This document shows positions 27,701-38,537 of a DNA stretch of 64,000 nt, piece after piece. The stretch's first letter is position 1. Each line of letters starts with the position of its first letter. Source of the stretch: an uncultured candidatus Porisulfidus sp. (GTDB taxonomy: Bacteria > Pseudomonadota > Gammaproteobacteria > Poriferisulfidales > Poriferisulfidaceae); assembly GCA_965116025.1 (NCBI GenBank), contig OZ220480.1, positions 448,001 through 512,000 of the forward strand. Reading direction: 5' to 3'. A model generated the notes under the pieces. The model searched no databases, was not told the DNA's origin, and saw only the letters and a list, made by a program, of their open reading frames with translations. The translations under genes were made by a program, and so were the position numbers.

Positions 27701-29272
27701 ATGATCTCATCCGAAGCCCTGCCCGTGCGCCGGGCGCTTCTGAGCGTGTCGGACAAATCCGGCATCGTCGAGCTGGCCCGGACTCTGGCCGAGCGGGGCG
27801 TCGAGCTGATCTCCACCGGCGGCACCGCCGCGGCGCTTCGCGGGTCCGGCATCGCCGTCCGCGAGGTCTCCGAGCTGACCGGCTTCCCGGAAATCATGGG
27901 CGGGCGGATCAAGACTCTCCACCCCAAGGTGCATGGCGCCTTGCTGGCCCGCGGGGAGCGGGATCGCGACGTCTGCGCCGCGCGCGGGATCGAGCCCATC
28001 GACCTGCTGGTGGTCAACCTGTATCCGTTCGCGCGAACGGTCGCTCGCCCGGACTGCGATTTTCAGGAGGCGATCGAGAACATCGACATCGGGGGGCCAG
28101 CCATGCTGCGGGCCGCCGCGAAGAATCACGAGCGTTGCTGCGTCGTGGTCGACCCCGGCGACTACGCGGCGCTCTCCCGATCCATCCGCGCTCAAGAGGG
28201 CGTCAGCGGAAAAACCAGGTTCGAGATGGCCGTCAAGGCGTTCTCGCATGTGGCGACGTACGACGCCGACATCGCGCGCTATCTCTCCGGCCAGCTGGAA
28301 TCGGACGGAGATCTCGGGCCGAGCATGCATTTGGCCTTTCGGCGCGAATCCATCCTCCGATATGGCGAGAACCCGCACCAGCGGGCGGCTCTGTACCGTC
28401 TTGAGGACCCGCCCCCGGGAACCCTGGCCTCCGCCACCCTTCATCAGGGGCGAGAGCTCTCCTACAATAACATCGTCGACGCGGACGCCGCTTGGGAATG
28501 CGTCCAGGAGTTCGACCGTCCCGCATGCGTCATCGTGAAGCATACCAACCCCTGCGGGGTGGCGGAAGCCCGTGACATCGAGGACGCGTACGAGGGCGCG
28601 TACCGGACCGACCCCACCTCGGCGTTCGGCGGCATCATCGCGCTCAACCGCCCGATGACCGCCGCGCTCGCCCAAACCATCATCGACCGGCAGTTCGTGG
28701 AGGTTATGATCGCGCCGGACTTCGACGAGGAAGCACTAAGGGTCCTTTCCAAAAAACCCAAGGCGCGCGCGCTCGCCGCTGGCGTCGCGCGACCCACCGA
28801 CTCCCCCCGCCCAACTCTGCGCGGCGTCAGCGGCGGGTTGCTCGCGCAAACGCCCGATCACGCTCTCCTGAATCGCGACGAGCTGCGCGTGGTGACCGAG
28901 CGGATTCCCGGAGAGAGGGAGTACCGCGACCTTCTGTTCGCATGGAAAGTCGCGAAGTTCGTGAAGTCCAACGCGATCGTTCTCGCGCGCGGCCAGCGCA
29001 CCGTCGGGATTGGCGCGGGGCAGATGAGCCGAATCTATTCGGCCCGCATCGCCGCCATCAAGGCCGCGGACGAAGACCTCTCGCTGGAGGGCGCCGCGAT
29101 GGCGTCAGACGCGTTCTTTCCGTTCCGCGACGGCATCGACGCGGCCCGCGAATTCGGAGTCACAGCGGTCATTCAACCTGGCGGCAGCCTGAAAGACGAG
29201 GAAGTCATCGCGGCGGCCAACGAGCACGACATGGTGATGCTCTTCACCGGGATGCGGCACTTCCGGCATTAA
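27701..29272 (+). CDS. purH: bifunctional AICAR transformylase/IMP cyclohydrolase
   Basis: RRALLSVSDK, KTLHP, IDIGGP, LRYGENPHQ, KHTNPCG, SDAFFPF, RHFRH. Confidence 0.98.
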   Translation: MISSEALPVRRALLSVSDKSGIVELARTLAERGVELISTGGTAAALRGSGIAVREVSELTGFPEIMGGRIKTLHPKVHGALLARGERDRDVCAARGIEPIDLLVVNLYPFARTVARPDCDFQEAIENIDIGGPAMLRAAAKNHERCCVVVDPGDYAALSRSIRAQEGVSGKTRFEMAVKAFSHVATYDADIARYLSGQLESDGDLGPSMHLAFRRESILRYGENPHQRAALYRLEDPPPGTLASATLHQGRELSYNNIVDADAAWECVQEFDRPACVIVKHTNPCGVAEARDIEDAYEGAYRTDPTSAFGGIIALNRPMTAALAQTIIDRQFVEVMIAPDFDEEALRVLSKKPKARALAAGVARPTDSPRPTLRGVSGGLLAQTPDHALLNRDELRVVTERIPGEREYRDLLFAWKVAKFVKSNAIVLARGQRTVGIGAGQMSRIYSARIAAIKAADEDLSLEGAAMASDAFFPFRDGIDAAREFGVTAVIQPGGSLKDEEVIAAANEHDMVMLFTGMRHFRH

Positions 29273-29969: not shown

Positions 29970-30311
29970 TCAAGCGAAAAAGATCACTATCGCGGCCATC
30001 ATGACCGCCGTCAAGGTCATGGCCACGCTCGCGCTCGCCCACAGGTGGAAATAGAGCCTGGTGAAGTGCCGCTGGATATTAACCTCCATCTCCTTCATAT
30101 CCAGCTTAATTTCCATCCTAAACATCTGGATCTCCTGGCGCAGGCATTCCTTCGTGACGAACCCGCGGCGCGCACGGAGCCAATCGTCCTGATCGCGGCG
30201 TTCGCCCGCTTGAGAAAAACGTTGCTTGAGAAAAACGTTGCTCGAGAGAAGCGCTGATCATCATAGCTCACCCATGGCTCCCATCGTATCATCAACAACG
30301 TGCGGACGCAT
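29970..30311 (-). pseudogene. degenerate DUF1640/CCDC90-like coiled-coil membrane protein gene
   Basis: Fragments DDTMGAMGEL* ... FVTKECLRQEIQMFRMEIKLDMKEMEVNIQRHFTRLYFHLWASASVAMTLTAVMMAAIVIFFA* parallel the neighbouring paralog (LVTKGYLRQEI...FTRLYWHLW...FFA); broken by a stop and frameshifts. Confidence 0.8.
30208..30239. repeat. 16-bp tandem duplication GCTTGAGAAAAACGTT x2
   Basis: Two exact adjacent copies inside the pseudogene. Confidence 0.9.
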
Positions 30312-30549
30312 CTTCGACAACCTTTGGAACGGAGACTCTGGGGAGGCGCAGTCATCTCGCCTCACGGAAGCTCCCAGTATTCGAAGCCCTCCGCCTCGTG
30401 AGTTGCTTGGACTGAAAACTTCGGGAGAGCAGATCAGGCGAAAAAAGCCACCATCGCGCCCATCAGGCTCGCCATCACGGTCATGGTCATACCCATGACT
30501 AGCCACAAATGCCAATAAAGCCTGGTGAATCGCCGCTGGAAGTCGCTTT

Positions 30550-30790
30550 CCATCTCCTTCATCTCTCCCCGCAGGACGCCAGCATCCTCTTTCATCTCCA
30601 TCCGCAACCCGCCAAACACCGCTCTCATCTCTCCTCGCAGGCCACCAACATCCTCCTTCATCTCCATCCGCAACCCGCCAAACGCCTCTCTCATCTCCAG
30701 CCGCAACCCGCCAATCTCTTCACCCACCTCCGCTCTCAGGCAAACGAACGCTTTCTCCATATCTGTCCTCAACGCCCCGATCTCTTGGCG
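30550..30790. repeat. imperfect 33-bp coding tandem repeats (11-aa hendecad coiled coil)
   Basis: Recurring ctcatctccatccgcaacccgccaaac units encoding GGLRxEMxExx; boundaries approximate. Confidence 0.8.
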
Positions 30791-30993
30791 CAGATAGCCT
30801 TTTGTGACGAGCTCGCGTTGCGCGTCGCGAATCGTCCCAACCACGGCGCTCGCCTGCTCGGGAGGAAAACCGGCTTTCATCAGTTCGTCCATGGCCCCCA
30901 TGGTGATGGGATGGTTCGCCCCGCTTCCCTGCTTGGCCTTGAGCGGGCACAATGAGAGTACAACCAACCCATCGCGAAAGCGGGACGACCCTT

Positions 30994-32040
30994 ATGAAGC
31001 AGACTCTACATCAACTGGCCATCGCCCATCTGGGCGTGGACCTGGGCAAGCAGGCGTTTCACGCTTGCGGGATGACGCGCGCCGGCAAGATCGTTCTGGA
31101 GAGGCGCTTCACGCGGGCTCAGCTGGAACGCTTCGCGGAGGAGCTGCCGCCATGCCGGGTCGGGCTGGAGGCCTGCGGCGGCGCGCATCACTGGGCGCGG
31201 CTGTTCCGGCGTCATGGGCATGACGCGCGGCTGATGGCGCCGTCCTTCGTGAAGCCGTTCGTGAAGTCGAACAAGAACGACGCGCGCGACGCGGAGGCGA
31301 TCTGCGAGGCGCGGAGCCGTCCGAGCATGCGCTTCGTGCCGGCGCGGACGGAAGCCGAGCAAGCGATCCAGCAATGCCATCGGACGCGGGCGCGGCTGGT
31401 GCGGAGCCGCACCCGGCTGGTCAATCAGTCGCGCGCGTTCCTGCAGGAGTACGGGATCGTCATGCCGAAAGGGATCGGGGTCTTTCGCGCGCGGCTGCCG
31501 GAGATCCTGGAGGACGGCGAGAACGGCTTGCTTCCGGAAGTCCGCGAGGCGCTGGCGGAAGGTTACGAGGAGGTGCGGGAGCTGGACCGGCGGGAGGGGC
31601 GTTGCCGGGCGCGGATCCAGGCGCATGCCGAGGCCGACCCGGGCTGTCGGCGGCTGATGACGATCCCGGGCATAGGCGCGCTGTCGGCCAGCGCCCTGGT
31701 CGCGAAGCTGGGCGACGGCAGCGAGTTCCGCGACGGGCGGGAGGCGGCCGCCTACCTCGGCCTGGTTCCGAAGCGGTATTCCACCGGCGGAAAGCCGAAG
31801 CTCGGAGGGATCAGCAAGCGGGGGGACCGCGCCTTGCGCGGCCTGCTGATCTTGGGCGCGAAAGCGGTATTGCGGGTCTCGGACCAGCGCGAGGACGCGC
31901 TCGGCGCTTGGCTTCGCGGCCTGCGCGAGCGCCACCACGACAACGTGGCGGCGGTCGCGTTGGCGAACAAGAACGTCCGCATCGCCTGGGCGCTGCTCCG
32001 GCGTGGCGGAACCTATCGGGAGGAAGCCTGCATGACGTGA
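30994..32040 (+). CDS. IS110-family DEDD transposase/recombinase
   Basis: GVDLGK, GLEACG, KNDARDAEAI, TIPGIG, GLVP..YSTGGK..LGGISKRG, VALANK. Confidence 0.96.
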   Translation: MKQTLHQLAIAHLGVDLGKQAFHACGMTRAGKIVLERRFTRAQLERFAEELPPCRVGLEACGGAHHWARLFRRHGHDARLMAPSFVKPFVKSNKNDARDAEAICEARSRPSMRFVPARTEAEQAIQQCHRTRARLVRSRTRLVNQSRAFLQEYGIVMPKGIGVFRARLPEILEDGENGLLPEVREALAEGYEEVRELDRREGRCRARIQAHAEADPGCRRLMTIPGIGALSASALVAKLGDGSEFRDGREAAAYLGLVPKRYSTGGKPKLGGISKRGDRALRGLLILGAKAVLRVSDQREDALGAWLRGLRERHHDNVAAVALANKNVRIAWALLRRGGTYREEACMT

Positions 32041-32059
32041 GGCTTCCCTCCGTATCCCG

Positions 32060-32265
32060 GCGGGCTTCGCCCGCCGATCGGTTGCGGGGAAGAAGCGAAA
32101 GGATGGCGGAACAGGTCGGACCGACGCTCCGAGACCCTGGATTTGATACAGGCCTTCGAGGCCGTTCTAGTGATAAGGTCGGAGCGTGCGGAACCCATCG
32201 GGGCCCGGGAGGCGAGGTCCTCCCATCGAGAGGCCGGATATATGTGCGCAGCCGATCGACCGTCG
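32060..32265 (+). ncRNA. putative bridge RNA / seekRNA of the IS1111-type element
   Basis: Closing stem 32075-32086 / 32247-32258; stem ACGCTCCGA / TCGGAGCGT enclosing ATTTGATAC (reverse complement of the target); second loop with CCCATC and ATATATG matching the IS circle junction; RNA ends are inferred. Confidence 0.75.
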
Positions 32266-32475
32266 CCTCGAGCTTCCGACTTGCAGGGAGGGGGCGAACC
32301 ATATATATCAAATGTCGGCGGCGGTGGACCCTCGCTCGCGCCAAGAGCGTGGTCTTCGGGCGGCAGGCTCGGTGGATTCATCATGGACTCCTCATGAAAT
32401 GGAAATACGGATAGGCGCTCACCCCGGGCGAGGCGGGCCGAAGCCCGCGAGTCGCGCGCGGCGCGGGCTCTCTCT

Positions 32476-34047
32476 TCATCGCTTCATGTTTCGCGCCATT
32501 CCCAGAGCGCTGACGCGGCCCGCGTTCCCGATTCCGGTCGGATCCGAGGAGGGGCCCAGCGCGTCCAGGCCCCGCATGGCGGCGTTGCCCGCGGCGTAGA
32601 CCACCCACAGCATCCCGAGAGGCAACAGCATGTGCAGCGCCATCGTGCCGTATCCAAGCGCGATCCGGTCCACCTCCCAGCGTCCGGCGTCGCCGAGTTT
32701 CATGCCCGGGTACATCGCGTCGATCAGCGCGTCGTCAAGGAAGTTCGAGATCCCGAACATCATCGAGAACAGCCGCACCGCCACGATCATGAGCATGATG
32801 CGCAAGGCCGCCGTCAGGCTGTAGAACGTCAGGAACAGGTACGCCCCCAGCAGCATGTACAGCACCATGAGCATCAGGCTTTGCGCCATGGGGGCGATCC
32901 GCCGCATGATGTGCAGCCGGGCGTACAAGCCGAGGGACTCGGCGCCGACGAACGCGGTCGCCCCGATCGCGGTGGACAGCGCGAAGGCGCCAAGGCTTCC
33001 GCTCGCCGCCCAGGCGGCCAGGCCGCTGGCGATCCCGGAGCCCGCGGCGAACGCGGCGAGTCCCGCGAGGATCTCGTTGTCCGGTCCGCCGATGCCGTAG
33101 CGGCGAGGGCCGTTGAGAATGGTGTTGCGCACCATTTGCTCCTCGATGAAGTCCCGGCTGTAAGTCTCCTTCGTGAAATCCGCGATCCAGTCCATGTCCG
33201 GCACGAAGCGCGCGAGGCTTTTCAGCAGGCCCTCGTTCTCCTCATCGCCAAGCCACCAGTCCCGGCACGCCGGTAGCTGGCCGTCCCCCTTCCAGCGCTT
33301 CACCTTCGTTCGGGGCCGGGGAAAGGGATCGAACGAGCAGGCCCCTCGCTCCGAGACCTCGTCGCACAGGGCGTAGTAGCCCGGCTCGCCCAGAAAATAG
33401 CGATTCCCCGGATACTCCGCGTCCTTGCGCGCCACGACCTCTTCCGCGGGCTGGAAAATCTCGTATTTCCGCCACGCGGGCACGAAGCACTGGCTGGCGA
33501 AGTGATCGAATTCCTGGCGGACGCCCGGATCCTTGATGAACGCGTGGCGGGTCCGGAACGCGAGACCGGAGTAGTCCTGAAAGCATGGCAAATGCCGCAG
33601 CACGGCCTGGGTTATGCCGCCGCTGACCGACAGGGCGATGGCCCAGAAGATCGGGATCCTGGGGTGCTCCTCGTGGAATCGGGCCAACTGGGTGGTGTCG
33701 TACGTGGTGTCGGTGTCTCCGTAGGTGTGAGCGACTCCCCCGAGCTGGCAGACCGGAGCGTATTCGATAGAGTTCGGCTCGACCTTGACGTAGGGGACGA
33801 CCATGAAGACGAACACGACCAGCGCGACCGGGAGGTCCACCCGCATCTGGCCGACGGAGCCCCTGCTGTTGGGGAAGACGTTCTCGGAACTGAGCGGAAT
33901 CATGAAGTTGCGGACGATGATCACCAGAAACGGGATCAAGAGCAGATTGAGGTCGTCGGCGAGCTCGAACAGCAGCTCGTACATGCTCCACCCGAACATG
34001 GTCAGGTAGACCTCGATGTAGCTGAACGTCGGGATCGTCGCGTACAT
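32476..34047 (-). CDS. conjugal transfer TraG N-terminal domain protein (VirB6-like)
   Basis: SYIEVYLTMFGW, LLLIPF, GDTDTTY, RIPIFW, IKDPGVRQEFDHFASQCF, CRDWW, PMAQSL; terminal position typical of PFGI-1-type ICEs. Confidence 0.82.
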   Translation of the reverse strand: MYATIPTFSYIEVYLTMFGWSMYELLFELADDLNLLLIPFLVIIVRNFMIPLSSENVFPNSRGSVGQMRVDLPVALVVFVFMVVPYVKVEPNSIEYAPVCQLGGVAHTYGDTDTTYDTTQLARFHEEHPRIPIFWAIALSVSGGITQAVLRHLPCFQDYSGLAFRTRHAFIKDPGVRQEFDHFASQCFVPAWRKYEIFQPAEEVVARKDAEYPGNRYFLGEPGYYALCDEVSERGACSFDPFPRPRTKVKRWKGDGQLPACRDWWLGDEENEGLLKSLARFVPDMDWIADFTKETYSRDFIEEQMVRNTILNGPRRYGIGGPDNEILAGLAAFAAGSGIASGLAAWAASGSLGAFALSTAIGATAFVGAESLGLYARLHIMRRIAPMAQSLMLMVLYMLLGAYLFLTFYSLTAALRIMLMIVAVRLFSMMFGISNFLDDALIDAMYPGMKLGDAGRWEVDRIALGYGTMALHMLLPLGMLWVVYAAGNAAMRGLDALGPSSDPTGIGNAGRVSALGMARNMKR

Positions 34048-34051
34048 GGGA

Positions 34052-34423
34052 TCAGCCCAGATAGCGAAGCGACAGCAGCCCCTCGCACGCCACGCATATC
34101 GCGACCACGGCCCACGCCAGCCGGCGGCGCTCGTCCGTGGACAACGGGGTTCCCCCGCCCTCGACCCGCCGCCGGTCGATCCAGTCGACCAGACGCGGCC
34201 AGCGAAGCGTCAAGTACAGATAGGTCGCGCCGTGCGCGCTGGCGTGAAGCCAGAGGCCGTAGCGATCAAGAAACTCTCTCCACCGCGACAGGGCGGCGGC
34301 CTGGCCATCCAAGAAGCCCGGCGGCGCGCCAGCCAGCCGCCAGGCCAGATACGACAGCCCGACGCCCAGCGCCAGCGCGGCCAGCAACGGCCACAGGACG
34401 CGGTGCGTCCGAAAGCCCCCCAT
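34052..34423 (-). CDS. ICE membrane protein (hypothetical)
   Basis: Three hydrophobic segments; sits between TIGR03755-like and TraG_N genes as in PFGI-1-type ICEs; TGATG overlap. Confidence 0.65.
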   Translation of the reverse strand: MGGFRTHRVLWPLLAALALGVGLSYLAWRLAGAPPGFLDGQAAALSRWREFLDRYGLWLHASAHGATYLYLTLRWPRLVDWIDRRRVEGGGTPLSTDERRRLAWAVVAICVACEGLLSLRYLG

Positions 34424-35751
34424 CAAGGATTCTTCTCCAGAAGCGGGAAGCCGCCGTCGATCAGGCGCGAATCGGTATTTTCGGGAGGACTGATTCGGAT
34501 CGGCCGAAGGATGTCCCCGAGCGTCTCGAACTCGATGAAGGTCCGGATCGTCTCGGAGGCCAAGCGGTGCGAGGCGCGCACCTCGTCGAGCACGAAATCG
34601 ACTTGGCCGTTGACGCGCTCAAGCGCCACGTCCAACGCCTCGCGCGCTGGGGCCAGGGCCGCGACGTTCGGCTCCTGGCGGCCCGCCATCAGGGCGGCGC
34701 GAGCGACGAAGGTCTTCTCCACGACCCGCGCGGTCGCCAGCTCCGACGCTAGGCGCCGAACGCGCCAGCCCGCGTCCGGCCGAGCCTGCAGGCCATCGAT
34801 GATCTCGCGCCGCACCACCAAGTGGCGGCTCGAGACGTCCGTCAAGTCCTTCTCCTCCAAATTCACGGGGTCAGTCTTGACCAGCCGCCGCAGGATCTCC
34901 TCGATCCGCCGCCGCTCGACCTCGATCAGAGGCAACAGTCCGTGTCCGGTGATGGTGGGACTCGGCGCGTCGTCGACCAGGCTGATGGCCTGCTCTCCGG
35001 CGATGTCGACCAGCCAGTTCGCCACGTCCTCCGGGGTCTCGAACAGGGACGCGATCTCGGTCGGGCGATCCGTATCCCGGCACGTGACCGGCGCGCGGTT
35101 CAGCAGGCACCAGCCAGCGCGGGCGCTGTCGTAGACCGGACGGATCAGGCTCTGGCCCACGCCCCCCGCGCGCTGGCCCCCGACCCAGGCCAGTCCGTCC
35201 TCCGGGGCCCGCTCCGCCTCCTCCCGCGCCGCCAGCACGCTGTTCTTCTCATGCGCCTGCCGTCCCCACTCCAGCGATTTCGCCACCTGCGTCCAGGCCC
35301 CCGCCGGGCCGCGGTCGGCGATCCCCTTCTCGATTTCCTGGCAGGAGCCGAGTGCCAGCTTGTACGCCTCGCCCGCGCGAATGGTGTAGTACTGCATGAG
35401 CTGGCAGGCGGCCGGGAACGCCCGGCAGAACAGTCCGCCCGGCAGAGCCAGAAGGATTTGCTTCGGGAGCGACTTCAGGGTCGTCAACTGATCTTCCAGC
35501 CGTTTCAGAATTTCCTGCACCTGGAAGTTGAAGTCGAATTTTCCGCAACTGTAGGTCGCCCCCGCGTGGATATCCGGCAGCAACTGAATTCGCAAGGTCT
35601 CGCCGGGGGTCGTGGGCACCGCGCGCGCGCCTCCGAGCGTGTAGTACAGGCCCAGCTCCTCGCTGCTCGGGAGCTTGATTCGCGCGTCCGAGGCCGCGGG
35701 GATCGCTGACAGAATCGCCACCCACGCGCACATGCGGATCCAGGGGCTCAT
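34423..35751 (-). CDS. integrating conjugative element protein, PFL_4711/TIGR03755-like
   Basis: Signal peptide, LYYTLGGA, SCGKFD, GLAWVGGQRAGGVGQ..I, GWCLLNR, GHGLLPLI, RLASELA, LMAGRQEPNV. Confidence 0.85.
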   Translation of the reverse strand: MSPWIRMCAWVAILSAIPAASDARIKLPSSEELGLYYTLGGARAVPTTPGETLRIQLLPDIHAGATYSCGKFDFNFQVQEILKRLEDQLTTLKSLPKQILLALPGGLFCRAFPAACQLMQYYTIRAGEAYKLALGSCQEIEKGIADRGPAGAWTQVAKSLEWGRQAHEKNSVLAAREEAERAPEDGLAWVGGQRAGGVGQSLIRPVYDSARAGWCLLNRAPVTCRDTDRPTEIASLFETPEDVANWLVDIAGEQAISLVDDAPSPTITGHGLLPLIEVERRRIEEILRRLVKTDPVNLEEKDLTDVSSRHLVVRREIIDGLQARPDAGWRVRRLASELATARVVEKTFVARAALMAGRQEPNVAALAPAREALDVALERVNGQVDFVLDEVRASHRLASETIRTFIEFETLGDILRPIRISPPENTDSRLIDGGFPLLEKNP

Positions 35752-38537
35752 GCCTCCCGCCCCCGTCGACGTCGGCGAATCGAATCGCCGATCCGCCGCG
35801 CCGCCTCGAGCTCCGCGCACCCATGCCGCCGCATGAGACTGGCCCGCCGCGCTTTCTCGTCTTTCTCCGTCTGACTCAGGGCCAGCGACAGCGCCGGAAC
35901 GACGTTGCGAAACGGAGTCATCAGCTTCCCGGACATCACCACGCCCTCGGTGTATTCGCCGGGCTCCTTCCGAGCGGACAGGATCATGGCCTTCTGCTCG
36001 TCGTCGAGCCTGCGGAACTTTCCGATCATGTCCACCTCGTCGCGCTCCATGGTCATGCATATCCACCATTCGGGCTGGTTGAGAAGCTCGCGGGCGGTCT
36101 CTGGGATCTGGCGCAGGCTCTGGGTGGCGATCCACAACCACGCGCCGTACGTGCGCCACATCGCGGAAATCGATAGGATGTACGGAGAGATCAGGGGGTT
36201 TTTCAAGAGCAGGTGCGCCTCGTCCAGAACCACCACGGTCTGCCGCGCCGAGTACTGACAGGCCCTCACCTGGTCGTTGACGCGCGACAGCAGCCCGCTC
36301 ATCGCCACCGCCAGCCACGCCTCGTTGCGCCGACGCGCCAGCGCCCCCAGCTCGACCACGGTCACGTCGGATTCGGGCCAGGACTTCCCGGGGCGATTGA
36401 AGATCTCTCCCGCCTGCCCCGTGCAGAACAGCTCGATCGCGTTGGCCATCCGGCTCAGGCTGCGCCGCTGCTCCTCGCTAAGATGATCGTCCAGCAGGCG
36501 ACCGGACTCGGCCGCCCGGTGCATCAGGCCCGCCAGATCCTGGGTCAGCACCGGCGCGTCCGGGCGCTTCGCGGCCGCGCTGGCGACCGCCAGCAACGAT
36601 TTCCGGATCAAGTTCAGGTCCTCGCGCGCCAGGCGCCGCTCCTCTTTCGGATCCCCGCCCGTCACCATCAGCCTCGCTTGGATCTCCATCTCGCCCAAGA
36701 GGTCGCGCCCGATCCCGTCGTCGCCGTCGCCCCCGGGCGCCGGGCTGGCGTCCAGAAGCGCTCGGGCGTCGGCGAACGGAGGGATGGGCGTTTGGTCCCC
36801 GTTGACGTGATGCACGGACAGGCCTTTCGACTGGAAATGCTTGGCGAGCAGGCCAAACGTCGGCAACGCCGTGATCAGGTACAACCGAGGGCGATGCACC
36901 GCGACCGCATGCAGCAGCGTGTTGACGAGAAAGGCGGTTTTTCCGGAGCCCGTCGGGCCGAAGACGAACATGTGCGCGTTCTTCGTTCGATCCAGCGGGT
37001 TCAACGGATCGAACGACAGCGGCTCCGCGCCGCGATTCCACGCCATCAGGCCCGGATGGCGCGTTCCGGTGGAACGGCCGTAGACCGGCAAGCACCGCGC
37101 CACGTGGTCCAGGAACCACAGGCGAGAACGGCGCGCGTAGAAACTGCGGTCTTGCGCCGGACTGAAGTTGAACGGCAACGCGCGGATGTAGGAATCCTGC
37201 GCCAGGGGGTCGTCCCGCGGGGGAATCAGCGCGACGCCATGGGCCATCAGGGTCGCGGACACGCTCCGCGCCCGGCGCTCCAGGGTCTCGTCGTTCGGAG
37301 CCGAGAGGAACACGCCACTGAAGACCGGCAGGATCGGATTGCCTTCGGACGCCGCGCGCGCCGCCTCGTCGGCGAGAGAGCGAATGGCGATCGCCTGCGG
37401 GTCGTCGCCGACCGCGTTGCGCCGCACGCGCGCCACATGCTCCAGAATCTCGTCTTGGGGAGCGAACGTCACGGCCATCATCCAGATCGCCCCCTCCGGC
37501 ATCCGGTCCCATAGCGTCTGGCGACGGTCCCCGATCCTGCGCTCGGCCGTCAGATGTCCGACGCGCGGCTCTCCCAGGATCGCGTTGACCGTCAAGAACC
37601 GATGGGGACGACCGTGGAAATGCCAGCAGTTCTTCTTGGCCGAGGACCAAGGGGCGCCGTGGCGCAAGGCCCGATGCGCCAGATCCCCCAGCGCCGCCCT
37701 CTCCAGGAGAGCCAGCGGCGTGGAGGGCAATGGCGCGCTCGAATTCTCGGCCGCGTCACGGCCCGGGCCGAACCAGTCCTCCAGCCACGCGCAGAGATCC
37801 TCGCCGCCCAGAGGAGTCAGGCGAACGCCGACTTGCGCCAGCGAATGGCCTAAGCGCTCGCACAGATCGTCCAGGCTCTGCCCGTCCGGAATTCCGCTCT
37901 GTTCCTCGACGCGCCAGACGCACAGCCGAATATCCCGGCTCTTTCCTTTCCACGGAGTCTGGCTGACCGGATCAAGGAACAGCCCGCCCTCCTCGCAAGC
38001 GTCCTCGTAGTGCTCGCGCAAGATCCTCATCCAGTCCCGCGAGTAGTCCGTGTCCCGAATTTCCGGGGCGACGTACCGCTCGAGCGCCTGCAGGTCACCA
38101 TCCAGGCGATAGCGGTCGCGCACGAAGAACTGCGCGATCCAAGGCCGGCGCCGGTTTTGCGGAAAGACGTCGCGCAGCAGGGGAACCAGACGCCGATGCA
38201 GATCCTCGATGACGTCGTCGGGCCTTCCCTCGGTCCGCGCGGGCGTCAAGTCGAACAGGCGCCCGACGCTGCGCAGATCTTTCATCAGGATCATGCTTGG
38301 CCCGAGGGCGGCCTTGGGGAACAGCAGATCCGCGAACGACGCCGAGGTCCGGATCCCCCGCGTGGCGGGCGGATCGTTCCCGATCGGTCGCGCGAACCGC
38401 TTTCGGGTCATCGGCCAACGGCCCATTCCGCTCCAGCATCGGGCTTCCGCGTCCGGCGCGCGCGCCGGGTCCGACGGCAACGCCGGGCGAAGCCCGGCGA
38501 GCCATCGGTCCAGAATATTCCTCCCGCGATCACTCAT
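35748..38537 (-). CDS. conjugative transfer ATPase, VirB4-like (PFL_4706/TIGR03744-like)
   Basis: TEGR, PWIAQFF, LPVYGRSTGTRHPG..WNRG, FDPLN..DR..NAH, Walker A GPTGSGKT, Walker B LDEAH, WLWIATQ, ARKEPG.YTEGV, TEKDEK. Confidence 0.9.
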   Translation of the reverse strand: MSDRGRNILDRWLAGLRPALPSDPARAPDAEARCWSGMGRWPMTRKRFARPIGNDPPATRGIRTSASFADLLFPKAALGPSMILMKDLRSVGRLFDLTPARTEGRPDDVIEDLHRRLVPLLRDVFPQNRRRPWIAQFFVRDRYRLDGDLQALERYVAPEIRDTDYSRDWMRILREHYEDACEEGGLFLDPVSQTPWKGKSRDIRLCVWRVEEQSGIPDGQSLDDLCERLGHSLAQVGVRLTPLGGEDLCAWLEDWFGPGRDAAENSSAPLPSTPLALLERAALGDLAHRALRHGAPWSSAKKNCWHFHGRPHRFLTVNAILGEPRVGHLTAERRIGDRRQTLWDRMPEGAIWMMAVTFAPQDEILEHVARVRRNAVGDDPQAIAIRSLADEAARAASEGNPILPVFSGVFLSAPNDETLERRARSVSATLMAHGVALIPPRDDPLAQDSYIRALPFNFSPAQDRSFYARRSRLWFLDHVARCLPVYGRSTGTRHPGLMAWNRGAEPLSFDPLNPLDRTKNAHMFVFGPTGSGKTAFLVNTLLHAVAVHRPRLYLITALPTFGLLAKHFQSKGLSVHHVNGDQTPIPPFADARALLDASPAPGGDGDDGIGRDLLGEMEIQARLMVTGGDPKEERRLAREDLNLIRKSLLAVASAAAKRPDAPVLTQDLAGLMHRAAESGRLLDDHLSEEQRRSLSRMANAIELFCTGQAGEIFNRPGKSWPESDVTVVELGALARRRNEAWLAVAMSGLLSRVNDQVRACQYSARQTVVVLDEAHLLLKNPLISPYILSISAMWRTYGAWLWIATQSLRQIPETARELLNQPEWWICMTMERDEVDMIGKFRRLDDEQKAMILSARKEPGEYTEGVVMSGKLMTPFRNVVPALSLALSQTEKDEKARRASLMRRHGCAELEAARRIGDSIRRRRRGREA

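Follow-up and report, generated by a model that had tools for sequence, protein, structure and literature searches.

A predicted bridge/seek RNA with target and putative donor guide segments downstream of an IS1111-group transposase gene

The 64-kb stretch of DNA analyzed here (the window; coordinates are positions within it) comes from an uncultured candidatus Porisulfidus sp. and carries an insertion sequence of 1402 bp on its forward strand (30904-32305, +; TGATGGG...CCATATA). The element consists of a transposase gene (30994-32040, +) flanked by noncoding DNA, of which the downstream part contains a structured segment at 32075-32258. We conclude that this segment very probably encodes the guide RNA of the element, a bridge RNA or long seekRNA; production of the RNA, its binding to protein, and the choice of target and donor by base pairing are presumed here from sequence comparison. 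A preliminary description of this DNA had placed a guide RNA downstream of the transposase, and that proposal is borne out by covariation in the family and by loop segments that track both the target flanks and the element ends.

The insertion sequence, its copies, and its target site

The transposase gene is an intact open reading frame (ORF) for a protein of 348 amino acids with DEDD/RuvC-like and Transposase_20 domains; these matched Pfam models PF01548 (DEDD_Tnp_IS110; 72.9 bits) and PF02371 (Transposase_20; 85.3 bits), both above the cutoff. The protein also matched the NCBIfam model NF033542, "IS110 family RNA-guided transposase," with 339.9 bits (cutoff, 140), and its homologs align from residue 1. 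A GL-P----S(t)G motif and a length of 330 to 350 amino acids typify IS1111 transposases (PMC11187229). The protein encoded here, of a length within that range, has the motif GLVPKRYSTG. Plasmid-borne relatives of the transposase are at most about 50% identical to it and are annotated just as "IS110 family transposase."

Subterminal inverted repeats and a longer noncoding region 3' of the transposase gene are defining features of IS1111 elements (PMC11187229; PMC11208160), and both are present. The left repeat (30911-30922, +; ATGGTTCGCCCC) is 12 nt long and 100% complementary to the right repeat (32291-32302, +; GGGGCGAACCAT), within the 7 to 17 bp of the group, and short terminal extensions lie outside the two repeats (left, 7 nt; right, 3 nt). 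The left extension, TG-ATGGG (30904-30910, +), is made up of a base designated c1 (T), a G, and ATGGG, the last being complementary to the putative donor guide at 32194-32199 described below. Downstream of the transposase gene there are 265 nt of noncoding DNA (32041-32305), compared with 90 nt upstream (30904-30993).

The genome to which the window belongs is one contig of 2.02 Mb, in which we found seven full and five partial copies of the element; the copy in the window is referred to as W. The ends TGATGGG (30904) and CCATATA (32305) are common to all seven full copies in an alignment, and the 348-amino-acid ORF is kept in five of them, ending at 297 amino acids in c2 and at 144 in c7. Copy c3, which lies outside the window (C1:1413615-1415668; loci L003 and L008), forms a 1.5-copy tandem with the 3' 650 bp of a second copy, which adjoins it directly and starts at the equivalent of window position 31657; the outer flanks of the tandem, AACAAA-T ... 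GTCGCCC, suit group-B guides and the inner joint does not.

Three public DNA-type runs from one study (X1 to X3) contain the element, and contigs from them were compared with positions 30600-32600. In one X1 contig (3475 nt), 30903 is followed directly by 32306, and exactly 1402 bases are missing. One base of the joint is ambiguous, as its T may be either that of 30904 or that of 32306. The empty site in this contig reads ...CCCATGG|TATCAAATG. The uninterrupted site is therefore ...CCCATGG-T-ATCAAATG..., with one T where the occupied site has one T at each end; the left half of the target is CCCATGG (30896-30903, +), the right half is T-ATCAAATG (32306-32314, +; read from the flank, the other copies, and the X1 contig), and the sequence spanning both is CCCATGGTATCAAATG. 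The X1 contig joint and the ends of the seven copies thus fix the element boundaries, and the empty site and the flanks of the seven copies indicate site-specific insertion without target duplication. The occurrence of an empty site means that the insertion is polymorphic among public samples and hence that the element was active recently. An X3 contig, followed from 30904, passes through ATCAAATGTCG and continues at 32458; it lacks 32318-32457, which lies between the target and the next gene.

A coiled-coil gene on the minus strand (30434-30901, -), with weak, sub-cutoff Pfam matches (Apolipoprotein and CCDC90-like), has its start codon in the CAT at 30899-30901. On that strand, the element was inserted 2 nt upstream of the gene's ATG. 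Copies c5 and c6 occupy the equivalent position in paralogs of this gene, and uninterrupted paralogous sites elsewhere in the genome read TTATCGTATCAAAC, TCATTGTATCGAAC, and TCATGGTATCAAA[A/G], in surroundings that resemble the flanks of c5, c6, and W. Within the coiled-coil gene, 66 nt are repeated in tandem (30559-30697, 2.1 copies), and in X1 and X2 contigs a joint steps back 66 bases there, from 30665 to 30600, perhaps because the number of repeats differs.

Taken as a whole, the sequence features support placing the element in the IS1111 group of the IS110 family. The DEDD transposase, the perfect 12-nt subterminal repeats, and the long noncoding region downstream of the gene agree with its earlier labeling as an IS1111-type element.

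Structure and conservation of the downstream RNA

The putative RNA is closed by a 12-bp stem, P1, whose 5' strand (CGATCGGTTGCG; 32075-32086, +) and 3' strand (CGCAGCCGATCG; 32247-32258, +) form one G:U pair (T32082:G32251). Within it, a conserved GAUGGCG motif (32102-32108, +; identified from the RNAalifold consensus and pair counts) is identical in sequence to the left-end top strand and is the predicted intramolecular partner, in a helix termed P2, of 32194-32199. The first arm begins with a perfect 9-bp stem, the target-loop basal stem, formed by ACGCTCCGA (32124-32132, +) and TCGGAGCGT (32179-32187, +). The loop above it contains the candidate right target guide (32141-32149, +; DNA ATTTGATAC, RNA AUUUGAUAC), complementary to the target top strand G-T-ATCAAAT, and the candidate left target guide (32164-32171, +; DNA GTTCTAGT, RNA GUUCUAGU), which has the same sense as the left target and terminates in the shared base, c1 = U32171. 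An inner hairpin, GGCCU-UCG-AGGCC (32151-32163, +), parts the two. On the 3' side of the molecule, a putative right donor guide, CCCAUC (32194-32199, +), is complementary to GATGGG of the left end and is alternatively the 3' strand of P2; it is followed by a second stem-loop (32202-32235, +; P4 GGCC/GGCC with an inner hairpin, 32207-32212/32219-32224) and by a putative left donor guide, AUAUA-U-G (32238-32244, +), which reads as the right end (ATATA) followed by c1 and G.

The stems, the inner hairpin, and the guide-like segments of the preliminary description were recovered base for base at the positions it gave. Its "loop 2" required amendment: the segments are present where it placed them, but they flank the second stem-loop within a multibranch junction closed by the 12-bp stem and do not form a simple internal loop, an arrangement also described for many IS1111 elements (PMC11208160). 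A minimum-free-energy (MFE) fold of 32073-32260, computed from the single sequence, contains the 12-bp stem, the 9-bp stem with its hairpin, and the second stem-loop, the stems that had been claimed. A further GC-rich hairpin, CCGGCGGGC-TTC-GCCCGCCG (32057-32077, +), lies directly 3' of the transposase stop codon and overlaps the first bases of P1; by eye, stem bases are changed and the hairpin is kept in homolog loci L013 and L014. It is followed by no T-run and so is not a typical terminator.

A homolog scan with one genome per species yielded 80 loci whose transposases are 45 to 68% identical to that of W, and common blocks 3' of the stop codon are retained in distant relatives. From 20 sequences we built an alignment (A2) and an RNAalifold consensus, which was extended by hand to 32 pairs. 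In A2, 97.0% of cells pair and 15 of the 32 pairs show double changes, a result reached by none of 500 shuffles; sliding the partners by one to three columns left 25.5 to 43.8% pairing. A covariance model built on the A2 structure, R1, gave 91 matches in 89 sources and found the RNA 3' of the transposase gene in 77 of the 80 homolog loci (the exceptions being L028, L039, and L088), as well as on a Citrobacter IncC plasmid (68.7 bits), where it follows an unnamed IS110-family transposase. The model superseded a set of simple anchor regular expressions, which had found the RNA at just 16 of the 80 loci. In a larger alignment of 70 distinct rows (A3), 92.4% of cells pair, against 26.8 to 42.2% for slid controls, and double changes occur in 23 of the 32 pairs (0/500 shuffles). 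The P1 core GUUGC/GCAAC and its extension covary in the family, as do the pairs of the inner hairpin in both alignments, and double changes were found in five of six modeled pairs of the target-loop basal stem in A2 and in six of six in A3. Covariance modeling with homologs thus bears out a conserved structure beside the transposase gene, with covariation.

In the genome of the window, R1 matched 10 places, comprising 8 strong matches and 2 weak remnants. The weak matches, C1:429133-429339 (50.2 bits) and C1:1475513-1475721 (44.7 bits), coincide with right-end fragments; both places are without a full transposase match and appear as degenerate solo RNA/right-end remnants.

Several results weigh against reading this segment as a guide RNA. 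Its folding energy is no better than that of shuffled sequences (z, -1.08 for 32073-32260 and -1.01 for 32040-32310); at a z of about -1 in GC-rich sequence, folding energy alone proves nothing. A scan of 30000-36000 against Rfam 15, with E values up to 1, gave no match to a curated model, which shows only that such a family is absent from that library. The A3 alignment was fitted to R1 and is biased toward the structure, a bias from which A2 is free. No RNA run is on record for the organism, and the runs containing the element are of DNA type.

The last of these points, together with a scan of 30800-32450 in which no sigma-70-like promoter or terminator beyond chance was found inside the integrated copy, would be expected if the conserved segment acted as DNA, as a set of transposase-binding sites or a single-stranded DNA structure at the right end, with the flank matches as by-products. 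We regard this as very unlikely. Compensatory changes preserve helices of differing sequence, G:U-type pairs are frequent in P1 in A3, as expected for RNA, the guide segments vary with the target and the scaffold is constant, and RNAs from the same position in IS1111 relatives copurify with their transposases (PMC11187229).

Target guides, donor segments, and the crossover

The right target guide had been described as the exact reverse complement of the target, and ATTTGATAC is indeed complementary to 9 of 9 bases of the uninterrupted target GTATCAAAT in the X1 empty-site contig. To place this match in the family, guide columns were read from the R1 alignment and element ends were located via the subterminal repeats. 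Both ends were found for 83 of the 91 R1 matches, the 8 without a left or right end being unused; L062 (ends mislocated) and L008 (a duplicate of L003) were excluded from the guide and end tests, and L045, whose left flank is cut off, was excluded from the guide-flank test, which covered 76 unique insertions in 55 guide classes. Right guides matched their own right flanks at a mean of 7.22 of 9 positions, versus 4.08 for the flanks of other elements. Left guides matched their own left flanks at 5.74 of 9 positions (2 of the 9 being scaffold), versus 2.77. In permutations with one representative per class, the sum of the two was 13.09 against 6.97 (standard deviation, 0.28), and none of 10,000 permutations reached it. 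Guide and flank thus correspond across the family; in W, the correspondence is complete on the right side and at chance level on the left.

Mere coincidence of stems and short matches in a GC-rich stretch would agree with the unexceptional folding z of about -1 and with the shortness of the individual matches, but its probability is close to nil. ATTTGATAC occurs once in the 64-kb window, where 0.06 occurrences are expected and 6 of 100 shuffles contain a match; the architecture recurs at 77 of 80 homolog loci, and the permutations did not reproduce the guide-flank agreement.

The copies in the genome differ in their guides. ATTTGATAC is the right guide of W, c4, c5, and c6, TGTTGACAT that of c2 and c3, and TGTTGATCT that of c7, and several left-guide types are likewise present. 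Among six near-identical copies, 9 of 17 guide positions vary, compared with 77 of 1385 positions elsewhere (Fisher's P value, 1.3e-7).

The guide-flank correspondence is not uniform, and two observations count on the opposing side. The guides of c7 suit the flanks of c7 poorly (right, 6/9; left, 2/9). Those flanks look like the target of the other lineage, a sign of events similar in kind to those considered for the left mismatch of W. In W itself, the left guide and the left flank agree at 4 of 9 positions, a level attained by about 28% of noncognate pairs; counted by eye over the left target alone, 3 of 7 positions match, in keeping with the weak left match first reported. The backbone of W is nearest to c2 and c3 (identities of 99.2% and 99.0% in the 5' part and of 98.0% and 98.1% in the 3' part of the transposase gene), its right guide belongs to the c4-c6 lineage, and its left guide is a hybrid that switches back and forth between two sister-copy types. 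Relaxed or off-target insertion was the cause originally proposed for the mismatch. It stands as one candidate, an insertion with little left-side pairing; mobilization in trans by the RNA of a sister copy, whose left guide fits slightly better, and drift of the guide after insertion are equally open. W may be a guide variant caught in mid-retargeting, in a 2-Mb genome with several variants of one element. A recent insertion in which the right guide alone matches suggests that right-side pairing plus one shared base may be enough.

The two donor segments were compared with the element ends in the same way. In all 81 records, the first 5 bases of the left donor guide are the same as the terminal 5 bases of the right end, in three states (ATATA, ATACA, and ATGTA). 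The c1 that follows them agrees with c1 of the left junction in 80 of these records and with c1 of the right junction in 75. The proposed complementarity of CCCATC (32194-32199) to GATGGG of the left end holds here and extends to the family, in which the right donor 7-mer is complementary to the left end at a mean of 6.0 of 7 positions. The segment shifts with the left end, as in AUCUCAU/ATGAGAT, AUUCCAU/ATGGAAT, and AUCCCAU/ATGGGAT. RNA-guided recognition of the donor is, on these comparisons, likely but unproven. The agreement comes from few states in related sequences, and shared ancestry could explain much of it. CCCAUC, moreover, has a conserved intramolecular partner in GAUGG(C) at 32102-32107, with which it would form P2 in competition with donor pairing.

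P2 lies at the center of the main rival account, in which the RNA is a seekRNA for the target only: the transposase would read the ends through the subterminal repeats, CCCAUC would be a P2 strand, and AUAUAUG would be scaffold. RNAalifold predicts P2, pairing GAUGG with CCAUC; it is 100% paired in the 20 sequences of A2, with two pairs doubly changed, and in the 70 rows of A3 one of its pairs is AU in 35 and GC in 34. In L013 and L014 both P2 strands are changed, to CAUGG/CCAUG, and the left end is still TGATGGG. On its core-facing side, the supposed right donor guide is often at odds with the left end. For ISEc11, an 82-nt short seekRNA outperformed a 154-nt form in transposition, and end recognition may differ between the two families (PMC11187229). 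Other features argue the opposite way. The left donor 5-mer tracks the right end without exception through its three states, and the right donor segment reaches 2 to 3 bases past P2 in step with the left end. P2 itself is broken at another position in 23 of the 70 A3 rows and is absent from the MFE fold of W, and donor-complementary nucleotides are described in the multiloops of IS1111 RNAs (PMC11208160). We therefore consider an RNA confined to the target unlikely and prefer an RNA that carries guides for both target and donor.

The conserved GAUGG(C) at 32102-32107 might serve as a built-in mimic of the left end, the donor guide being masked in P2 until the donor junction or the protein displaces the mimic. 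Motif, guide, and left end covary in the family (GAUGG/CCAUC/ATGGG versus GAUGA/UCAUC/ATGAG). We put this forward as a doubtful but testable idea; if true, such a gate would couple activation of the RNA to the presence of the circular donor.

Comparison of the junctions bears on the crossover. Left junctions, beginning with the left target (LT), always read LT-T-G-ATGGG in the clade of the window and LT-c1-A-ATGG in most relatives; right junctions, ending in the right target (RT), read ATATA-c1-x-RT, in which x agrees with the guides and the target and not with the left end. The base c1, which is T here and A or C in some relatives, is alone common to the left, right, and left donor guides and to both junctions. 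A dinucleotide core like that of IS621 was considered and rejected. The second position differs, with G at the left junction (A in most relatives) and A in the guides and at the right junction (G or T in relatives), and a single shared base at the crossover would fit better. The right junctions of c2 and c7, which carry A and G at c1 in place of T, do not conform and count against this scheme. Nearly all relatives, L013 to L092, have A as the second base of the left end (TAATGG, AAATGG, or CAATGG), regardless of their guides; this base is G in the clade of the window and in L089 and T in L051.

Expression may depend on the joined ends. TTGCAG (32281-32286, +), read from the sequence and conserved as CTTGCA in relatives, is a candidate -35 box that, with a 17-nt spacer, would face a -10 box, TA|TGAT, formed just when the right end joins the left. 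At the junction of relatives whose left end is TAATGG, the -10 box would be TATAAT. An A at the second base of the left end completes TATAAT or CATAAT at the joined ends, and selection for the promoter may be what fixes it. A junction promoter is reportedly known for ISEc11, going by the title alone of a reference listed in PMC13626964. ATATATG had previously been equated with the circle junction; its identity to the right end ATATA plus c1 plus G stands, but no circle junction (32305 back to 30904) was found among the X1 to X3 contigs. That result is a further point on the opposing side, although contigs drop rare forms, so it is uninformative.

These elements suggest the following working. 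The RNA would come from the noncoding region downstream of the transposase gene, probably cotranscribed with it from the promoter at the circle junction, and would then bind the DEDD transposase. P1 would close a multibranch fold, the first arm of which would hold the internal loop with two target guides overlapping at one base, c1 = T. Around the second arm, CCCAUC would pair with the left end (GATGGG) and AUAUA-U would match the right end plus c1, placing the circle junction ATATA-T-GATGGG next to the target. Strand exchange at c1 would then insert the element between CCCATGG and TATCAAAT without duplication.

Genomic setting and comparison with known systems

The ORF next to the target on the right (32476-34047, -) encodes a TraG_N-like protein (PF07916, 82 bits), which suggests that the element lies in or beside a conjugative element. 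Two pairs of equally long ORFs were considered as repeats and rejected: 27701-29272 (+) and 32476-34047 (-), both of 523 amino acids, are unrelated (PurH-like versus TraG_N), and of 30952-32040 and 34046-35134, both of 362 amino acids, one is the frame of the transposase and the other an ORF without a Pfam match.

RNA-guided DEDD recombinases are under development as break-free tools for DNA insertion, and the IS1111 branch is far less studied than IS621. The pair described here is compact, at a 348-amino-acid protein and an RNA of about 185 nt, and it offers independently confirmed boundaries, an empty site, and five intact sister copies, with natural guide variants that amount to a ready-made specificity series. 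Testable rules also follow from the family alignment, with its 77 loci and 55 guide classes: a division of the columns into guide and scaffold, a crossover at one shared base, a tolerance for poor pairing on the left side, and possibly a self-masking helix. In the host genome, the insertion has placed the element 2 nt upstream of the start codon of a gene in a repeated coiled-coil family. The preliminary description spoke of a new programmable recombinase candidate. The element is a new example, but the class was already published in 2024, so the phrase applies only in a weak sense; that the RNA is a new example of the bridge/seek RNA class, and not a new kind, is well supported.

IS1111 elements produce an RNA downstream of the transposase gene that copurifies with the transposase and can be reprogrammed (Siddiquee 2024, PMC11187229). 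Like the seekRNAs of ISEc11, ISPa11, ISKpn4, and ISPst6 in that paper, the RNA here would lie in a long noncoding region downstream of a DEDD transposase gene, with the top-strand match 5' of the bottom-strand match and with subterminal inverted repeats at the element ends, and in both cases close relatives have acquired new targets in nature through changes in the guides alone. The element is a different one and has its own target, CCCATGG|TATCAAAT, just upstream of a start codon. Siddiquee 2024 defines matches to the target alone; here, matches to the donor ends are found as well.

Bridge RNAs are predicted in 93% of IS1111 elements, with donor nucleotides in a multiloop (Durrant 2024, PMC11208160). 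Compared through text and legends, the IS1111 bridge RNAs of that paper (ISCARN28, ISAzs32, and ISPa11) resemble the present one in lying in the right end, in having a target-binding internal loop and donor nucleotides in a multiloop, and in the long subterminal repeats of their elements. They differ in that the junctions of the present element are better explained by the single shared base c1 than by a dinucleotide core.

The bridge RNA of IS621, of the IS110 group (Durrant 2024; Hiraizumi 2024, PMC11208158), is alike in that one RNA guides both target and donor, each DNA being read on both strands on either side of the core, and in that the recombinase combines a DEDD/RuvC-like domain with a Tnp domain bearing a catalytic Ser/Thr-Gly finger. 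The IS621 RNA lies upstream of the transposase gene, in the left end, and consists of successive simple internal loops; its core is CT, its repeats are 2 to 3 bp, and the order of its left and right guides is the reverse of that found here. In contrast, the RNA described here lies downstream and is nested in one closing stem, within an element whose repeats are 12 nt long and whose core is probably of a different length.

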